DNA of 64,000 nt from an uncultured Candidatus Saccharibacteria bacterium (GTDB lineage Bacteria > Patescibacteriota > Minisyncoccia > Phycocordibacterales > 2-02-FULL-43-11). The position numbers and the translations under genes are program-made. The notes under the pieces are model-generated. The model searched no databases. It was not told where the DNA came from and saw only the letters and a list, made by a program, of their open reading frames with translations. The stretch spans positions 120,369-184,368 of the forward strand of contig CAYGDO010000001.1 in NCBI GenBank assembly GCA_964348785.1, in the 5' to 3' direction. Positions 2,559 through 62,368 of this stretch are shown here, piece by piece. Position 1 is the first letter of the stretch. Every line of letters starts with the position of its first letter.

Positions 2559-3485
2559 ATGATTTATGATTTAATAATTTTAGGAGGCGGTCCAGCCGGG
2601 GTTTCGGCGGGAGTTTACGCTTCAAGAAAAAAGCTTAAGACTCTTGTCATCACAAAAGATATGGGGGGCCAAAGTACAGTATCAGAAAATATCCAAAATT
2701 GGATAGGCACCCCTTCTATTTCCGGTTCCGACCTAGCTAAATCATTAAAAAATCACCTGCTCGCTTTTGCAGAAGGTGTTCTTGAATTGAAAGAAGGAGA
2801 ATTGATTGAAAAAATTACTGAAAAAAATAACCTTTTCCAAGTAAAAACAAAAAAGAATGAATATGAGGGAAAATCAGTTCTAATTGCAACCGGAAGTAAA
2901 AGAAGGAAATTAAGTGTTGAAGGTGCTGATAAATTTGAACATAAAGGTGTTACCTATTGCGCTTCTTGCGATGGACCAATGTTTGCTGATATGGATTTAG
3001 CAGTTGTTGGTGGTGGTAATGCTGGTTTTGAAACCGCAGCTCAACTTTTGGCTTACGCCAAAAGCGTCACTCTCTTTGAAAGTAATAGTGAATTCAAGGC
3101 CGACAAAATCACAGTTGAAAAAGTTTTAAATAATCCAAAGATGCAAGCTTTCAAAAACGTGGAGCTTTTAAAAATCGAGGGTGACAAATTTGTTTCAGGA
3201 TTAAGCTACAAAGATAAAACTACAGGAGAAATAAAAAATCTTTCAATAAGCGGTGTCTTTGTTGAAATTGGAGCGATGCCAGCAACAGATTTTGCAAAAG
3301 AAATAATTGAATTAAACAAATTTGGACAAGTCGTGACCGATCCACGAAATCAAAGAACCTCAAAAGAAGGTATTTGGTCAGCTGGAGATTGCACTGATGG
3401 TTTATATCACCAAAACAACATCGCCTCAGGTGATGCTGTAAAAGCCCTAGAAGATATTTACATTTGGCTTCAGAAAAGAGGTTAA
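2559..3485 (+). CDS. trxB: Thioredoxin-disulfide reductase
   Basis: N-terminal FAD-binding GGGPAG motif and the redox-active CASCDG (CxxC). 308 aa. TATAAT at 2545-2550. Confidence 0.85.
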   Translation: MIYDLIILGGGPAGVSAGVYASRKKLKTLVITKDMGGQSTVSENIQNWIGTPSISGSDLAKSLKNHLLAFAEGVLELKEGELIEKITEKNNLFQVKTKKNEYEGKSVLIATGSKRRKLSVEGADKFEHKGVTYCASCDGPMFADMDLAVVGGGNAGFETAAQLLAYAKSVTLFESNSEFKADKITVEKVLNNPKMQAFKNVELLKIEGDKFVSGLSYKDKTTGEIKNLSISGVFVEIGAMPATDFAKEIIELNKFGQVVTDPRNQRTSKEGIWSAGDCTDGLYHQNNIASGDAVKALEDIYIWLQKRG

Positions 3486-3805
3486 GATTTTGGTTTATCC
3501 AATTTATCTAACTTTAAAATTTTAACGCCGAAGTAAACGACAGCTGAAATAACAGCAAAGTTTATTAATATGTTTATGAAATTCCCCACTTTTATTTGAA
3601 CTTCCCCAATTTTTATAACCATATCGGTAAGCCCCTTTGCTTGATTTAATAGAATTCCTAAAATTGGATTAATAATGTCATCCACCAAGGACTTCACGAC
3701 AGTTGAAACCGCTCCCCCCAATATAAAACCGACAGCAAGGCCAACAACACCCTGAGTTCTTATAAAATCAAGAAAACCTTGAAATTGTGACTTGACTGAA
3801 TTCAT
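3482..3805 (-). CDS. mscL: Large-conductance mechanosensitive channel MscL
   Basis: 107 aa with two TM segments. N-terminus FLDFIRTQGVVGLAVGFILGGA matches the MscL TM1 consensus. Confidence 0.85.
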   Translation of the reverse strand: MNSVKSQFQGFLDFIRTQGVVGLAVGFILGGAVSTVVKSLVDDIINPILGILLNQAKGLTDMVIKIGEVQIKVGNFINILINFAVISAVVYFGVKILKLDKLDKPKS

Positions 3806-3825
3806 TATTTTAAAAAATTAAATTA

Positions 3826-4122
3826 TACTTGTGGGCAGTACAGGATTCGGTCACGCATAATTTTCTGCTGAAAATTTGCACAACCCGTCTCCCCCGCATT
3901 GCGGGGTCCGACTTTCGAGCCCACACCCCGCTTCGCTAAGCCCACAAATTTCGAGGACTCATTGTGGGCGGTAGAGGGATCTCTCTCCTTACAGGAGCAG
4001 TACAGGTTTTCCATTTTTATTTAATTTTAAAATTAAATAAAAATAAGGAAGAACCTTTTCGAGCCCTATACCGCAAGCCAAGCAGTTGGCTTGCTCCGCG
4101 CACTGCGTTCGGAAACCTCTCT
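3826..4122. repeat. GC-rich non-coding segment downstream of tRNA-Val carrying two extra copies of the tRNA-Val 3' end
   Basis: tgtgggcggtagaggg at 3965-3980 is identical to the tRNA 3' end at 4123-4138, and a degenerate copy sits at 3826-3840. It also holds several GC hairpins (ccccgcaatgcgggg; gcaagccaactgcttggcttgc) and the motif ctctccttacaggagcRgtaca, which is shared with 15382-15405. Confidence 0.5.
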
Positions 4123-4197
4123 TGTGGGCGGTAGAGGGCTCGAACCTCTGACCCCGAGAACGTCAATCCCGTGCTCTACCAACTGAGCTAACCGCCC
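4123..4197 (-). tRNA. tRNA-Val (anticodon GAC)
   Basis: Minus-strand sequence GGGCGGTTAGCTCAGTTGGTAGAGCACGGGATTGACGTTCTCGGGGTCAGAGGTTCGAGCCCTCTACCGCCCACA folds as a cloverleaf with anticodon loop TTGACGT. Confidence 0.9.
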
Positions 4198-4686
4198 TTT
4201 ATAACTCTGTCACAAAACTCCATACCAAGATACAATAATCTTCTCTGAATCGCAACATTCGCACATTTTAAACAACACAACACTTATACACAGGGTGTGG
4301 CCTGAAAGACAGTAAAATGTTAATATACATTTATACAAAAAAACTGTTCAAATCCCCATATAAACGCTGGCAATTTATTCCGGAGCCATCCGGGTATAGT
4401 GCTATTAAAGCGCTTTCACCTACCTCCCCGGCTTTAAACAAGGAGATCAGGTCGATTATATAGGGATTTGAGCAGTTTTTTATGTAAAAAAATAACCCTA
4501 AGTAATAGTATAGCAAATTAAATATATAATTAGAATAGAATATAACACACTTTTAATATATGAAGACGTAGGAAATGTACTGTCAAGGTATATATAAATA
4601 ATCTTCTTATTCTTAGCCTTTTATAAATACCAACAGATAAATTTTATTAAAAAATCAAAAATTAATAAAGAAAAAGTGCTAAATTT

Positions 4687-4715
4687 TTGACATAATTTTA
4701 CACTTTTGCTATGAT
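4687..4715 (+). promoter_or_regulatory. Sigma-70-like promoter (TTGACA-17-TATGAT) for the 4722 ORF
   Basis: TTGACA at 4687-4692, a 17-nt spacer, TATGAT at 4710-4715, and the ATG at 4722, giving a leaderless or short-leader mRNA. Confidence 0.5.
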
Positions 4716-12640: not shown

Positions 12641-13180
12641 TTATTTAACTTTCTCCAATAAAAGTTTTCTCAATTTATTTAAAGATTCATCAAATTCAAA
12701 TTTATTTTCAAATATTATATCCGCCTCATCAAGCTGATCAAATTCCTTTTTTAAAGATAGGTACATACCAAATGAATCCTTAAGGATATGTCCCTCCCTC
12801 TTATCTTTTTCAAGTCTTTCTTTGACAACATTCTCGTCTGCTTTTATCCATACCAATAAAATTTTATCCACATATTCACCAACTCCTTCAAACAAAAAAT
12901 TACGTAATGACTTTTTATGTAAAGTTTCGTCGACAATTATATTCTTATGCAAAACATAAATAGATTTTAAATCTAAAATTACTCTTTCAAAAACTTTCAT
13001 CCTCGTATCGTCAGAAAATGGAATGTTATTTTTAATATTATATTCAAAATTTGAATCTGTTGGGTAAATCTCTTTTTTTACAGCATCAACATCATAATAG
13101 AAAAAACCCAAATCCCTTGCTATAGCTTTAGCAAGAGAAGTTTTTCCAGTTCCTATCAAGCCCGCAAAAAATATGATCAT
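12641..13180 (-). CDS. P-loop NTPase / predicted kinase (AAA_33-like ATP-binding protein)
   Basis: Walker A motif GLIGTGKTS. Start moved to the internal Met (MIIFFAGLIGTGKTS) because the longer track ORF overlaps the tRNA-Phe 3' exon. Confidence 0.6.
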   Translation of the reverse strand: MIIFFAGLIGTGKTSLAKAIARDLGFFYYDVDAVKKEIYPTDSNFEYNIKNNIPFSDDTRMKVFERVILDLKSIYVLHKNIIVDETLHKKSLRNFLFEGVGEYVDKILLVWIKADENVVKERLEKDKREGHILKDSFGMYLSLKKEFDQLDEADIIFENKFEFDESLNKLRKLLLEKVK

Positions 13181-13186
13181 TTGTTG

Positions 13187-13492
13187 TGGTGCCGAGGGCC
13201 GGGCTCGAACCGGCGACCCCATGCTCTTCCGTATACATCAAATTATTTCAATATGATGCTTGGACTATCTCATTATCCTTTTGAAAGGATATCGGGCGCT
13301 AGTACAGGATTATTGTTGGGACTCACCTGTTAGTCTCTACACCTTCCAAGAAACTTTTAACCCTTCTTGGCTTGGCTCGGGATTGTCCATATTACTATGA
13401 GTTTTCCCCGAATTCACCCAATTTGCTTTACCTATTACTAGATAAAGGCCCGAAGATTCAGGCACATGCTCTACCAACTGAGCTACCTCGGC
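13187..13492 (-). tRNA. tRNA-Phe (anticodon GAA) interrupted by a group I intron. Exons about 13460-13492 and 13187-13229; CCA encoded.
   Basis: 5' exon GCCGAGGTAGCTCAGTTGGTAGAGCATGTGCCT and 3' exon GAAGAGCATGGGGTCGCCGGTTCGAGCCCGGCCCTCGGCACCA assemble into a canonical 76-nt tRNA-Phe with loop CUGAAGA, G37 and A73. Confidence 0.8.
13230..13459 (-). ncRNA. Group I intron (IC3-like, about 230 nt) in the anticodon loop of tRNA-Phe
   Basis: Contains the conserved IC3 core GGACAATCCCGAGCCAAGCC (like CAAUCCUGAGCCAAGCC in the cyanobacterial tRNA-Leu intron) and GGTGTAGAGACTAACAGG (like GUGUAGAGACUAGACGG in the Azoarcus tRNA-Ile intron). U at exon position -1 and G at the intron 3' end are consistent with group I splice sites. 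The exact boundary is ambiguous by 1-3 nt. Confidence 0.75.
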
Positions 13493-13534: not shown

Positions 13535-14251
13535 TTAACTATTTTTTAACAAATCAGCAAGTTTCCCCTTAACGCCCGCAATAAAACCAATTAACTGATG
13601 AAATTTTTTTGTATCACTAACTCTAACAGCAATAGTACCGAAAGGAAGTCGATTAAACTGACGCTTACTTTGACTTGATAAACTTTTTACATAAGAAATT
13701 TTTCCCAAACTTTCCCTTTTCAAACCTGTTACGTTTAACCAGTAAAAAATTGCTTGCTTCTCTTGTTTACGATCAAAAAGTCTTAAATTTAATCGGATTC
13801 TCGATTCTTCAATCTCTAAACATTTTCGCAAAAATAACATAAAAAACTTTATCATTTCTCCATCAGAATTAGTAAAGCTAATTGAATGATGAGTAACTTC
13901 TCTACCCCCAATCTTAACTGGTCTCTTATAACCTTCAGCCCAATACAAAGCAACACCAACAAAAAATAAATCCTTCAATAAAAAATTTTTAATGCTATCT
14001 TTAGCTTGTAAAAAAATATTATTGTTTCTTTCTTGAGCAATTAAAGTTTGTGCCTTATTTCTTTTTACTAGACCGTTTAAAACCCCAACCTCAACTTTTT
14101 TATTTATTCTTGTCCTTGCTTCTTCTGATAAGGGAAAATCTTTAAACCATCCAGATTGAGTCGATTTTGGTACTCCTAAAATTTTATATATCTCATTATA
14201 ACTATACCCCTGAGATCTCAATTGTTTTGCCTTTTCGTACCTAACATCCAT
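13535..14251 (-). CDS. HTH-domain protein, possible freestanding homing-endonuclease-like protein (weak LAGLIDADG-like FVGVALYWAEG motif)
   Basis: N-terminal resolvase-type HTH (YSYNEIYKILGVPKSTQSGW). About 238 aa. Lies immediately upstream of the intron-containing tRNA-Phe. Confidence 0.4.
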   Translation of the reverse strand: MDVRYEKAKQLRSQGYSYNEIYKILGVPKSTQSGWFKDFPLSEEARTRINKKVEVGVLNGLVKRNKAQTLIAQERNNNIFLQAKDSIKNFLLKDLFFVGVALYWAEGYKRPVKIGGREVTHHSISFTNSDGEMIKFFMLFLRKCLEIEESRIRLNLRLFDRKQEKQAIFYWLNVTGLKRESLGKISYVKSLSSQSKRQFNRLPFGTIAVRVSDTKKFHQLIGFIAGVKGKLADLLKNS

Positions 14252-14616: not shown

Positions 14617-14648
14617 TTCACTTCGTTACATAATCCCCTCGACAGGAA
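14617..14648. repeat. 32-nt direct repeat of the tRNA-Arg 3' end plus flank (copy 1; copy 2 at 14791-14822)
   Basis: ttcacttcgttacataatcccctcgacaggaa is identical at both positions. The copies bracket a roughly 142-bp GC-rich insert (14649-14790) that contains the hairpin gcaaatgaagcagttcatttgc. Confidence 0.7.
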
Positions 14649-14807
14649 AAGATATCTCCTTCGACTCAAAGCTCGCCGTTGCTCGCTTTGGTCTAGGCAC
14701 CGCCTCGCCAACTCGCCTACTGGCTCGATATGGCTCCGGCGTTCGATTCCTGACGCAAATGAAGCAGTTCATTTGCTTCGAGGTGACTATTTCACTTCGT
14801 TACATAA

Positions 14808-14879
14808 TCCCCTCGACAGGAATCGAACCTGTATCTAGACGTTAGGAGTGTCTTGTTCTATCCATTGAACTACGAGGGG
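14808..14879 (-). tRNA. tRNA-Arg (anticodon CCT)
   Basis: Minus-strand CCCCTCGTAGTTCAATGGATAGAACAAGACACTCCTAACGTCTAGATACAGGTTCGATTCCTGTCGAGGGGA. Anticodon loop CTCCTAA. Confidence 0.8.
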
Positions 14880-15221: not shown

Positions 15222-15359
15222 ATTTTTAAATATTATTTATAAGTCAAAGCATTATATCCGACAAGTCATTTTGAGTAAAAAAGTTATCCCCAACTAACAA
15301 AACATCCCTCCGATTTTCGATTCCCACACAAATACACCAATTCATTAGTGTATTTAAAA

Positions 15360-15410
15360 TGCGAGTGGCGAGAATCGGACCCTCTCCTTACAGGAGCGGT
15401 ACACCTTTTG
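15360..15410. repeat. Degenerate copy of the tRNA-Gly 3' end, then the hairpin motif ctctccttacaggagcggtaca shared with 3976-4003
   Basis: tgcgagtggcgagaatcggaccc resembles the tRNA-Gly 3' end tgcggatacggagaatcgaactcc at about 17/23 positions. The 24-nt motif is about 90% identical to the one downstream of tRNA-Val. Confidence 0.45.
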
Positions 15411-15501
15411 GATATTTAAGAAAATATCTCAAAAGGTCTTGCGAAGCTCCAAGTATTCGCTTCTCACCCTATGCTTGCCCTATAAAATTTGCTTTTTTCA
15501 A

Positions 15502-15572
15502 TGCGGATACGGAGAATCGAACTCCGATCTATTGCTTGGGAAGCAATCATTTTACCACTAAACTATATCCGC
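15502..15572 (-). tRNA. tRNA-Gly (anticodon CCC)
   Basis: Minus-strand GCGGATATAGTTTAGTGGTAAAATGATTGCTTCCCAAGCAATAGATCGGAGTTCGATTCTCCGTATCCGCA. Confidence 0.85.
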
Positions 15573-15747
15573 AAATTATTTAGGGTGAGGGAAGCACATG
15601 TACTGCCACTATACTACACTCGCAAAATTAAACGGGATTCTCAAAAATTATATTCGCATAACTCATTAATTTTTGGAAGAAGCACTTATTCTACCAATAT
15701 ATTTACCCTTTTAAAATTCATATTTTATTAGGGCCACACTCGCAAAA

Positions 15748-62231: not shown

Positions 62232-62368
62232 AAAAAAATAACCCGCCATGCGGGAAGAAAAATGACTAGTTATCCTCCCCTAATGGGGCTGGGTTTGGCA
62301 CCTTATTAAAAACAGGTTGCCGGGCGAATCATTGAGCCAGAACTCTCATCGCCACTCTTGATAAATAT
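62232..62368 (-). promoter_or_regulatory. SAM-I (S-box) riboswitch in the metK leader
   Basis: Minus-strand TTATCAAGAGTGGCGATGAGAG..TGGCTCAATGATTCGCCCGGCAACC...GGTGCCAAACCCAGCC matches the SAM-I consensus (YTCTTATCAAGAG.GG.GGAGGGA...GGCCC.ATGA..CC.GCAACC...GGTGC.AA.TCC). Terminator cccgcatggcggg + T-run lies immediately before the ATG. Confidence 0.75.

Follow-up and report, generated by a model that had tools for sequence, protein, structure and literature searches.

The window analysed here is a stretch of 64,000 nucleotides of an uncultured Candidatus Saccharibacteria bacterium (assembly GCA_964348785.1, contig CAYGDO010000001.1, positions 120,369 to 184,368 of the forward strand), and the subject of this study is the region between its tRNA-Val gene and the following gene mscL. 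The intact tRNA-Val(GAC) gene is located at 4124-4197 on the minus strand (ARAGORN; Rfam RF00005, 63.5 bits) and encodes no CCA. The last 16 nt of the tRNA (CCCTCTACCGCCCACA; direct repeat DR1, 4123-4138) recur on the minus strand as an exact copy at 3963-3978 (DR2) and as a degenerate copy with 3 mismatches at 3830-3845 (DR3, TCCTGTACTGCCCACA, 13/16 identical); the start codon of mscL follows at 3805, 24 nt past DR3. In the pattern search, CCCTCTACCGCCCACA had 3 matches in the window vs. 0.16 expected, and 3 matches were reached in 0 of 100 shuffles. Both recurrences had been noticed in a first-pass annotation made from the sequence alone, which gave spacings of 158 and 139 nt; the start-to-start distances measured here are 160 and 133 nt. 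The background GC content, given there as 34%, amounts to 36% for the window, and the value of about 55% ascribed to the inserts between the repeats holds for insert 2 (54%) and not for insert 1 (41%) or for both together (48%). Insert 1 reaches only 41% because it contains a hairpin of 32 nt consisting of A and T only.

Two complete structured units, a type B unit followed by a type A unit, are arrayed in the region 3830-4122, and their folds together account for the entire insert stretch. Unit 1 (type B, 3963-4122, minus strand) extends from the tRNA-Val trailer to DR2, comprises 160 nt with the terminal repeat and has the same layout as 24 other type B units. RNAfold yielded a three-way junction of the helices P1, P2 and P3 (-39.2 kcal/mol, z = -6.75), which is closed by GCGGUA.AGGG / CCCU.UACCGC. 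The 5' strand of the closing helix P1 is formed by an inverted piece (INV, GCGGTATAGGGCTCGAA, 4058-4074, minus strand), which was detected by repeat finding, k-mer scan and folding and is a 16/17 complement of the T-loop, the 3' strand of the T-stem and a part of the acceptor strand of tRNA-Val. DR2 provides the 3' strand of P1 and the acceptor-strand tail, as seen from pattern search and fold. In front of INV, a hairpin H0 (GCAAGCCAA-CTGC-TTGGCTTGC, 4073-4094, minus strand) was read from the sequence; H0 was seen again, with covarying stems and the loop CTGC or TTGC, in units of L036, L038 and L022 as well as in a unit behind tRNA-Arg of the window. P2 is a long hairpin (4004-4056, minus strand; repeat finding and fold), whose centre is the 32-nt A+T-only palindrome (4013-4044), and it is followed by the type B signature at 3983-4003 (minus strand), which consists of GTACTG and the P3 hairpin GCTC-CTGTAAG-GAGA(G).

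Unit 2 (type A, 133 nt, 3830-3962, minus strand) was recognized with R1, a covariance model built from 30 aligned type A cores. Its core (3837-3926) is a full-length match to R1 (61.1 bits, E = 6.7e-15), and the unit folds with -43.4 kcal/mol on the tRNA strand vs. -37.9 kcal/mol on the opposite strand. The trailer contains TTTGTGGGC at 3940-3948, which is complementary to GCCCACAAA, and additionally a GCGAAGC mini-hairpin; the inverted copy of T-loop and T-stem lies at about 3911-3926. In each of the two inserts the inverted copy lies about 55 nt after the preceding repeat. The inserts are intact members of two different families, and a simple tandem duplication is not the origin of the array at 3830-4122.

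No integrase or integrase remnant was found in or beside the units; the stretch 3823-4134 holds only two overlapping open reading frames (ORFs) of 63 aa (3823-4014, minus strand) and 56 aa (3964-4134, plus strand). The 63-aa ORF is present in the public gene call of the source contig (L001, 5792-5983). This gene call is probably false because the stretch is conserved as a paired structure. Two Logan contigs (L002 and L003) are independent assemblies of the same organism, and both break off at one identical base inside P3 of unit 2, position 1 of each corresponding to window position 3879. In addition, a 37-mer (GCAAATTTTCAGCAGAAAATTATGCGTGACCGAATCC) recurs in the unit of L123. Near-identical copies of units therefore probably fragment assemblies at tRNA loci.

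Distribution, anatomy and fold of the element family

The comparison was based on 42 species-level relatives, unselected and anchored on the neighbouring gene trxB, and on a metagenome scan for type A with one pattern, which yielded at least 120 contigs. Both units of the window belong to a family of elements of 105-175 nt that lie immediately 3' of tRNA or tmRNA genes, always on the tRNA strand, in Patescibacteria (candidate phyla radiation, CPR). Three types were distinguished. Type A follows the pattern GAAAG-N-CGGA..GAG-N'-CGGGGTCG..GTGACC, and type B the pattern ..TTCGAAG-RCC-[hairpin]-GGYGTACNG-[stem, loop CYGTAAG, stem]-CGAAT... In type C, the first hairpin is as in type A and is followed by GGTGCCYAGAC..AGTCGARGGAG; type C motifs were found 99-219 nt behind tRNAs in the relatives. 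Among the matches listed, 102 of 129 type A cores are located 18-294 nt (mode about 62 nt) behind a tRNA on the same strand, and the hosts represent about 38 anticodons, tRNA-Leu(TAG) for example with 9 cases. The remaining cores are mostly second units of arrays or lie behind 3' ends of tRNAs or tmRNAs that ARAGORN had missed. In the 42 relatives, units are present behind 19-20 of 64 tRNAs (about 30%), many tRNA-Val genes have no unit, and the order tRNA-Val-mscL is kept in none of the 42. Behind a putative tmRNA 3' end (..GGGTTCGATTCCCGCCATCTCCACA), judged so from its letters, type A units occur in L063, L104, L112 and L125.

Neither ARAGORN (tmRNA) nor any Rfam 15 model matched the units, including the models for tRNA and YrlA; membership of the repeats in tmRNA or another known non-coding RNA (ncRNA) had been named in the first-pass annotation as a finding that would refute its reading. 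No description was found in Rfam 15 or in the literature searched, so that the units are apparently undescribed.

On the tRNA strand, a unit begins with a variable trailer, which often forms a hairpin and is terminator-like in many relatives. An optional part follows, made up of a piece complementary to the 3' strand of the acceptor and of a conserved hairpin whose loop is CTGC or CTGGGAG. The next parts are the complement of the tRNA from T54 to about position 65, the core, and finally a tRNA copy that starts at about C56 and reaches the 3' end. Across 97 type A units, this copy agrees with the T part of the host in at least 8 of 10 positions in 75 units and with its acceptor part in at least 7 of 8 positions in 62 units, and the inverted piece matches the T part of the host in 56 units. 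Only about 15-30% of the type A units contain a complement to the acceptor strand. In these units the closing helix rebuilds the stack of acceptor and T-stem found in the host tRNA, together with discriminator and trailer, and in this respect they resemble tRNA-like structures (viral TLS, the tRNA-like domain of tmRNA, YrlA, mascRNA). Most units, in contrast, leave the acceptor strand unpaired, the core takes the place of the T-loop, and the models for tRNA, tmRNA and YrlA give no match.

The identity of the copy usually ends 0-5 nt past the tRNA end, and CCA is included only where the gene encodes it. The copy bears the trailer of the gene itself, and its source is therefore the gene or the primary transcript and not the mature tRNA; for the same reason, copying of mature tRNA in the manner of retroviruses was rejected. 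Two readings of the inverted piece were discarded as well. It does not follow the real tRNA rather than the downstream copy, as local alignment showed the downstream copy to be better preserved. It is also not a direct copy of the T-stem 5' strand and the T-loop, which is excluded by non-palindromic T-loops (TTCGATT gives AATCGAA).

For the analysis of covariation, 30 type A cores were aligned (A1) with an imposed three-way junction of P1 (inverted piece paired with copy), P2 and P3. In this alignment 88% of the cells are paired, vs. 72% in shuffled data and about 40% with slid partners, and both sides change in 22 of 32 pairs. The covariation score of 0.488 (vs. 0.176) was reached in 0 of 500 shuffles. 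The middle pair of P2, for instance, is CG in 16, AU in 10, GC in 2 and UA in 2 sequences and is never unpaired. The pair G47-U75 is invariant in A1, and since its counterpart on the opposite strand would be the mismatch A-C, the fold is confined to the tRNA-sense strand. All 11 units that were folded first are more stable on the tRNA strand. The junction nucleotides GAAAG, GGA/GA and GGGG are invariant in type A, and 25 type B units have 9 different P3 stems, all of them with complementary inner 3 bp around an unchanging loop CYGTAAG. These observations show that a unit consists of a T-loop/T-stem complement, a two-hairpin core and a tRNA copy, and that pairing of complement and copy closes a three-way junction, with the copied acceptor strand left as a 3' tail outside the closing helix. 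Because complement and copy pair to close the fold, the tRNA 3' "repeats" are a structural strand of each unit.

Two known RNA classes were considered as an identity of the core and rejected. The CUGUAAG loop can be read as the anticodon loop of a tRNA-Tyr (or tRNA-Val), hidden or intron-containing, on either strand; D arm and T arm are absent, ARAGORN and Rfam were negative, and the motif is found behind many kinds of tRNA. The GAAA beside a helix is reminiscent of known self-cleaving ribozymes such as the hammerhead; no CUGANGA core is present, and nothing was obtained with Rfam at E<=10.

The units look like mosaics of modules. Hairpin-loop motifs (GCGAATACNTGGAGC, GAGYGACGRCGAR, YCAGCAGR, CTGGGAG, AACTGCTT, AAGTGTAYYCACG) recur at varying positions in units of many loci, for example in L029 (7600-7700), in L094 and at 15440-15463 of the window. 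Composite units within one closing helix were seen as well (A+B in L069; C+B followed by the end of an A unit in L022). Units on the same contig had similarities of 0.77 and 0.78, compared with a mean of 0.65, in the two pairs available.

Integrases that target tRNA genes classically leave direct repeats of a tRNA 3' end starting in the T-loop (Islander, PMC4383910), and the first-pass annotation had accordingly explained the repeats at tRNA-Val as attL/attR scars of successive integrations, with inserts since shortened by deletion to 120-140 bp. The T-loop start of the fragment at both ends of each insert, the greater degeneracy of the distal repeat and the islands bounded by such repeats in relatives agree with this explanation. 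The inserts, however, are full-length members of two conserved families and not shortened remnants; relatives carry the same arrangement, conserved under covariation, which the annotation itself had named as the mark of a functional structured RNA. The geometry of the units is nearly constant on the at least 120 contigs, the same cores stand behind about 38 tRNA species among the matches listed, and the repeat pairs with an upstream complement within the fold, a complement that had escaped the annotation in both inserts. Integrase remnants are lacking at the units, and a search of viral contigs (2.9 million contigs; plasmids were not searched) gave 0 exact matches for three core patterns and the tRNA-Val 3' 22-mer. 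An origin of the inserts as decayed scars is thus highly improbable.

Gain, loss and possible mobility of the units

Units appear to be gained and lost between close relatives and to be dispensable. In L007 and L008, the tRNA-Val genes are nearly identical and the same gene follows downstream; the site is empty in L008 and filled in L007 with a type B unit of 149 nt, which is bounded by a 17-nt repeat, and the breakpoints lie exactly at this repeat. Arrays of units are common. Of 27 arrays compared, 19 have a proximal repeat that resembles the tRNA more closely than the following repeat does; in 5 both are equally close, and in 3 the proximal repeat is the poorer match. This better preservation of the proximal repeat fits an addition next to the tRNA, with older units pushed outward, and the array of the window, in which DR2 is perfect and DR3 has 13/16 identical positions, fits an addition beside tRNA-Val. 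New units thus appear to be added beside the tRNA and older ones to be displaced outward, and the arrays would grow and shrink by recombination between the repeats. From the proposal that the tRNA 3' end is a repeatedly used integration site, the serial addition was therefore retained (L007/L008 and the 27 arrays) and the integrase was not, as none is present in or beside the units. Recent tandem duplications were noticed in L047, L049, L062 and L044, and larger segments that carry genes and are bounded by the same repeats in L079, L015 and L097.

These features resemble those of islands that target tRNA and tmRNA genes and of att-flanked cis-mobilizable elements, in which the tRNA 3' fragment is likewise duplicated from the T-loop, tmRNA is also used, tandem arrays have their older copies further out, and filled and empty sites occur between relatives. 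They differ in that the CPR units have no integrase, that the insert is a conserved fold with an inverted target copy within, and that the length of the repeat is set by the tRNA end. The definition of miniature inverted-repeat transposable elements (MITEs) does not apply either: the inverted arms reproduce the host tRNA and vary between sites, and there is no target duplication of fixed length, the repeats ranging from 11 to at least 32 nt and ending at the tRNA end.

A recombinase linked to the units was sought by clustering of 1314 neighbouring ORFs. Serine recombinases at other tRNAs and a family of proteins with a helix-turn-helix (HTH) domain were obtained; neither was tied to the small units in this clustering. 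The large serine recombinases (Resolvase + Recombinase + Zn_ribbon_recom) converge on tRNAs in four relatives (L010, 10513-12030; L013, 9986-11509; L129, 3241-4821; L132, 11897-13537). The last 10-38 nt of these genes overlap the tRNA 3' end, as if an att site were contained in the gene end. A second repeat beyond them was not present in the available sequence of the four loci.

The units might also be miniature non-autonomous mobile DNA, each unit being a recombination site that acts in cis and adopts its fold as single-stranded DNA. Inverted and direct target copies would rebuild the duplex T-arm site of the tRNA, and a recombinase encoded elsewhere would insert the element at the T-loop of a tRNA or tmRNA gene and thereby restore the 3' end of the tRNA. 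Folded sites of this kind, which rebuild a duplex, are known from CTX phage with its two inverted dif-like sites and from integron attC. Presence and absence with exact repeat boundaries, arrays with the older copies further from the tRNA, gene-carrying segments within the same repeats, the use of tmRNA genes and the good folding on one strand only are in accordance with this explanation, as are the recombinase genes that abut tRNA 3' ends in L010, L013, L129 and L132. It would also accommodate DNA-type GCGAAGC mini-hairpins, the terminator-like hairpins between tRNA and unit in many relatives, and copies remote from tRNAs, which have arbitrary closing helices and are in part antisense to their neighbours.

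With CTX attP(+), integron attC and elements of the REP/REPIN/BIME type, the units also have in common that only one strand folds properly, that imperfect hairpins contain conserved mismatches, that hairpin modules are combined as a mosaic over about 100-150 nt and that some copies lie in ordinary intergenic regions. Those systems, in contrast, have neither specificity for tRNA 3' ends nor a closing helix copied from the target, and no Xer, IntI or RAYT-type partner was identified for the CPR units. Strand asymmetry together with inverted and direct target copies is what a folded single-stranded att site should exhibit; an RNA explains the same data. Against mobile DNA speak the lack of a recombinase linked to any small unit and of a second repeat beyond the serine recombinase genes, as well as the lack of exact matches in the viral contigs for the patterns named above. 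Moreover, the ends of the elements are host-specific and not conserved, and an incoming element would therefore already need to match each of the about 38 tRNA species. The invariant G-T pair and the frequent alternation of G-T and G-C are more typical of RNA helices. We regard this explanation, which is the main rival of the RNA reading, as rather doubtful.

An equally tentative proposal, with a low probability, is that the units may represent a new class of mobile elements homing to the T-loop of any tRNA or tmRNA gene, the 3' segment of the target being copied into both strands of the closing helix. If this were true, the unit would be a self-templating guide matched to its target, either as a folded single-stranded att site or as an RNA intermediate, and RtT of Escherichia coli would be a fossil of the same process.

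Likeness to RtT and possible functions

In E. coli MG1655, four RtT units are found behind tyrT/tyrV (RF00391, 133-138 bits), and each of them ends with AATCCTTCCCCCACCACCA, which corresponds to tRNA-Tyr from the T-loop to CCA. The consensus of RF00391 shows a closing helix GGGGAAGGAU:AUCCUUCCCC, a tail of acceptor strand and CCA, two inner hairpins and a tandem arrangement. The rtT RNA is reported to be the product of one repeat unit of the tyrT operon, for which a role in processing of the tyrT transcript and a likely link to the stringent response have been suggested (PMC3318445; bioRxiv 10.1101/2024.07.17.603846). The CPR units have the same architecture, with unrelated cores. They also lie immediately 3' of a tRNA on the same strand, end in a copy from the T-loop to the 3' end, are closed by a helix of T-loop/T-stem complement and copy, have an acceptor tail and two inner hairpins, and occur in tandem. 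A subset of type A even has GGAU-GA-GAA for GGAU-UC-GAA, the same departure from complementarity. RtT differs in that it belongs to tRNA-Tyr of enterobacteria and measures 178 nt, whereas the CPR units of 105-175 nt accompany about 38 tRNAs and tmRNA and have at least three core types that can be combined. The function of RtT itself is unsettled.

With a probability of about 0.6, we infer from the sequences that the units are RtT-like trailer RNAs, which are transcribed together with the tRNA. In scans, the stretch 3400-4700 proved free of terminator-like sites, and a promoter-like site was located on the minus strand at 4351-4322. With this promoter-like site upstream of the tRNA and no terminator separating tRNA-Val from mscL, co-transcription of the units with the tRNA is most likely. 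The units would be excised by tRNA-processing enzymes, and as trailer RNAs of the RtT kind they probably either act or just persist.

Several observations weigh against such trailer RNAs. RF00391 has no match in the window at the gathering score (45 bits), the stretch 3700-4700 gave none even at E<=10, and RtT reaches 6 bits with R1, so that no homology of the cores is detectable. In many relatives, a terminator-like hairpin with a T-run is located between tRNA and unit and would restrict co-transcription. Related cores, six to eight in number, occur elsewhere than at tRNAs; their closing helices are arbitrary, and three are antisense to the genes on both sides. Such antisense cores without a tRNA fit a repeat at the DNA level better than a trailer RNA. 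The mini-hairpins GCGAAGC and ACGAAGT are recurrent, and such mini-hairpins are especially stable in DNA. Finally, the occurrence of three unrelated cores in the same slot, together with their dispensability, argues against one essential function.

The elements away from tRNAs were located in L005 (2717-2797), L010 (5884-5965), L018 (3378-3458), L019 (3425-3516), L021 (2701-2778), L033 (2503-2576) and L038 (10726-10818), in ordinary intergenic regions near ftsA/ftsZ. They are composed of the type A hairpin modules GGAG-NNNN-GACG-NNNN-GAG and AAATTTTCAGCAGAAAATT, and their closing helices are unrelated to tRNAs. The copies in L005, L021 and L033 are orthologous, antisense to both neighbours and flanked by direct repeats of GCGAGCGAG.

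A third function that might be considered is that of a cis-regulatory switch, in which the inverted piece pairs either with the 3' half of the real tRNA or with the downstream copy. The core of the three-way junction would then sense a ligand or a protein and control maturation of the tRNA or read-through, in the window into mscL. In riboswitches with a three-way junction, it is usually the closing helix that switches. In the units the same 10-17 nt are able to form two mutually exclusive helices, the junction nucleotides are invariant, and units are often located directly upstream of a gene on the same strand. These downstream genes are, however, unrelated to one another, three unrelated cores share one slot, and units come and go at the same tRNA between close relatives. 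In addition, a terminator-like hairpin separates many units from the tRNA, which would presumably have folded before the inverted piece is transcribed. A switch is consequently quite unlikely.

For more than 30 years, RtT was an orphan curiosity of one operon of E. coli. The same architecture in a distant, genome-reduced phylum, with different cores and behind nearly every tRNA species and tmRNA, points to a general phenomenon, and hundreds of natural variants are at hand for biochemistry and for comparisons. Rfam 15 lacks these structured families, of which at least three (A, B and C) are well supported. Units behind about 30% of the tRNAs in spite of strong genome reduction suggest either a useful role in the handling of the tRNA transcript or an efficient selfish copying that rebuilds its target. 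For annotation, "tRNA 3' fragments" in CPR genomes are often parts of units and not boundaries of islands, and small ORFs across units are probably spurious.

Other units and features of the window

Units are present behind 3 of the 7 tRNAs of the window. Beside tRNA-Val, these are tRNA-Arg and tRNA-Gly, both on the minus strand. tRNA-Arg(CCT) is encoded at 14808-14879, and the k-mer scan identified a type C unit behind it (14617-14879 including the tRNA). A 32-nt repeat of tRNA end and trailer (TTCCTGTCGAGGGGATTATGTAACGAAGTGAA) occurs at 14791-14822 and, 174 nt downstream, at 14617-14648, an arrangement that was not part of the first-pass annotation. The inverted T-loop copy is located at 14741-14752 (+57). 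R1 gave a weak full-length match at 14645-14754 (17.6 bits, E = 0.012), in which the P2 half is common with type A.

tRNA-Gly(CCC) (15501-15573) is followed by a type B unit at about 15360-15463 (15360-15573 with the tRNA), in which the terminal copy of the tRNA 3' end is degenerate (CTCGCCACTCGCA vs. CTCCGTATCCGCA). The trailer of tRNA-Gly is homologous to insert 1. A hairpin motif of 24 nt had been reported as common to the two loci; the motif is real and consists of 16 nt that are exact (GCTCCTGTAAGGAGAG, 3983-3998 and 15382-15397), or 22 nt with one mismatch. Past the type B unit, at 15290-15340 (minus strand), a fragment (GTGTGGGAATCGAAAATCGGAGGG) was noticed, which reads as an inverted T-loop copy plus the start of a first hairpin and resembles the 5' part of a further, truncated unit.

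The gene for tRNA-Phe(GAA) (13180-13492, minus strand), which is missed by ARAGORN, contains a group I intron after U33 at about 13241-13469 (Rfam Intron_gpI, 70 bits). An intron at position 33/34 of tRNA-Phe(GAA) has already been listed for a Patescibacteria genome (PMC13011429). Next to it, at 13535-14251 (minus strand), a member of the HTH family is encoded. The proteins of this family comprise 220-240 aa with an N-terminal HTH and a weak LAGLIDADG-like region (E about 0.03-0.06 in a profile comparison with I-DmoI; no Pfam LAGLIDADG match). Members are also present in L008, L057, L062, L082, L121 (two copies), L138, L143, L148 and L156, and nearly all of the genes precede a tRNA gene of the same strand at a distance of a few to about 30 nt. 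L121 has such a gene inserted between tRNA-Leu and tRNA-Val, and none is found there in L082. Judged by these positions and similarities, the family may be a free-standing homing-endonuclease-like gene that targets tRNA clusters. A SAM-I riboswitch at 62267-62367 (minus strand; RF00162, 62.9 bits) is unrelated to the units.

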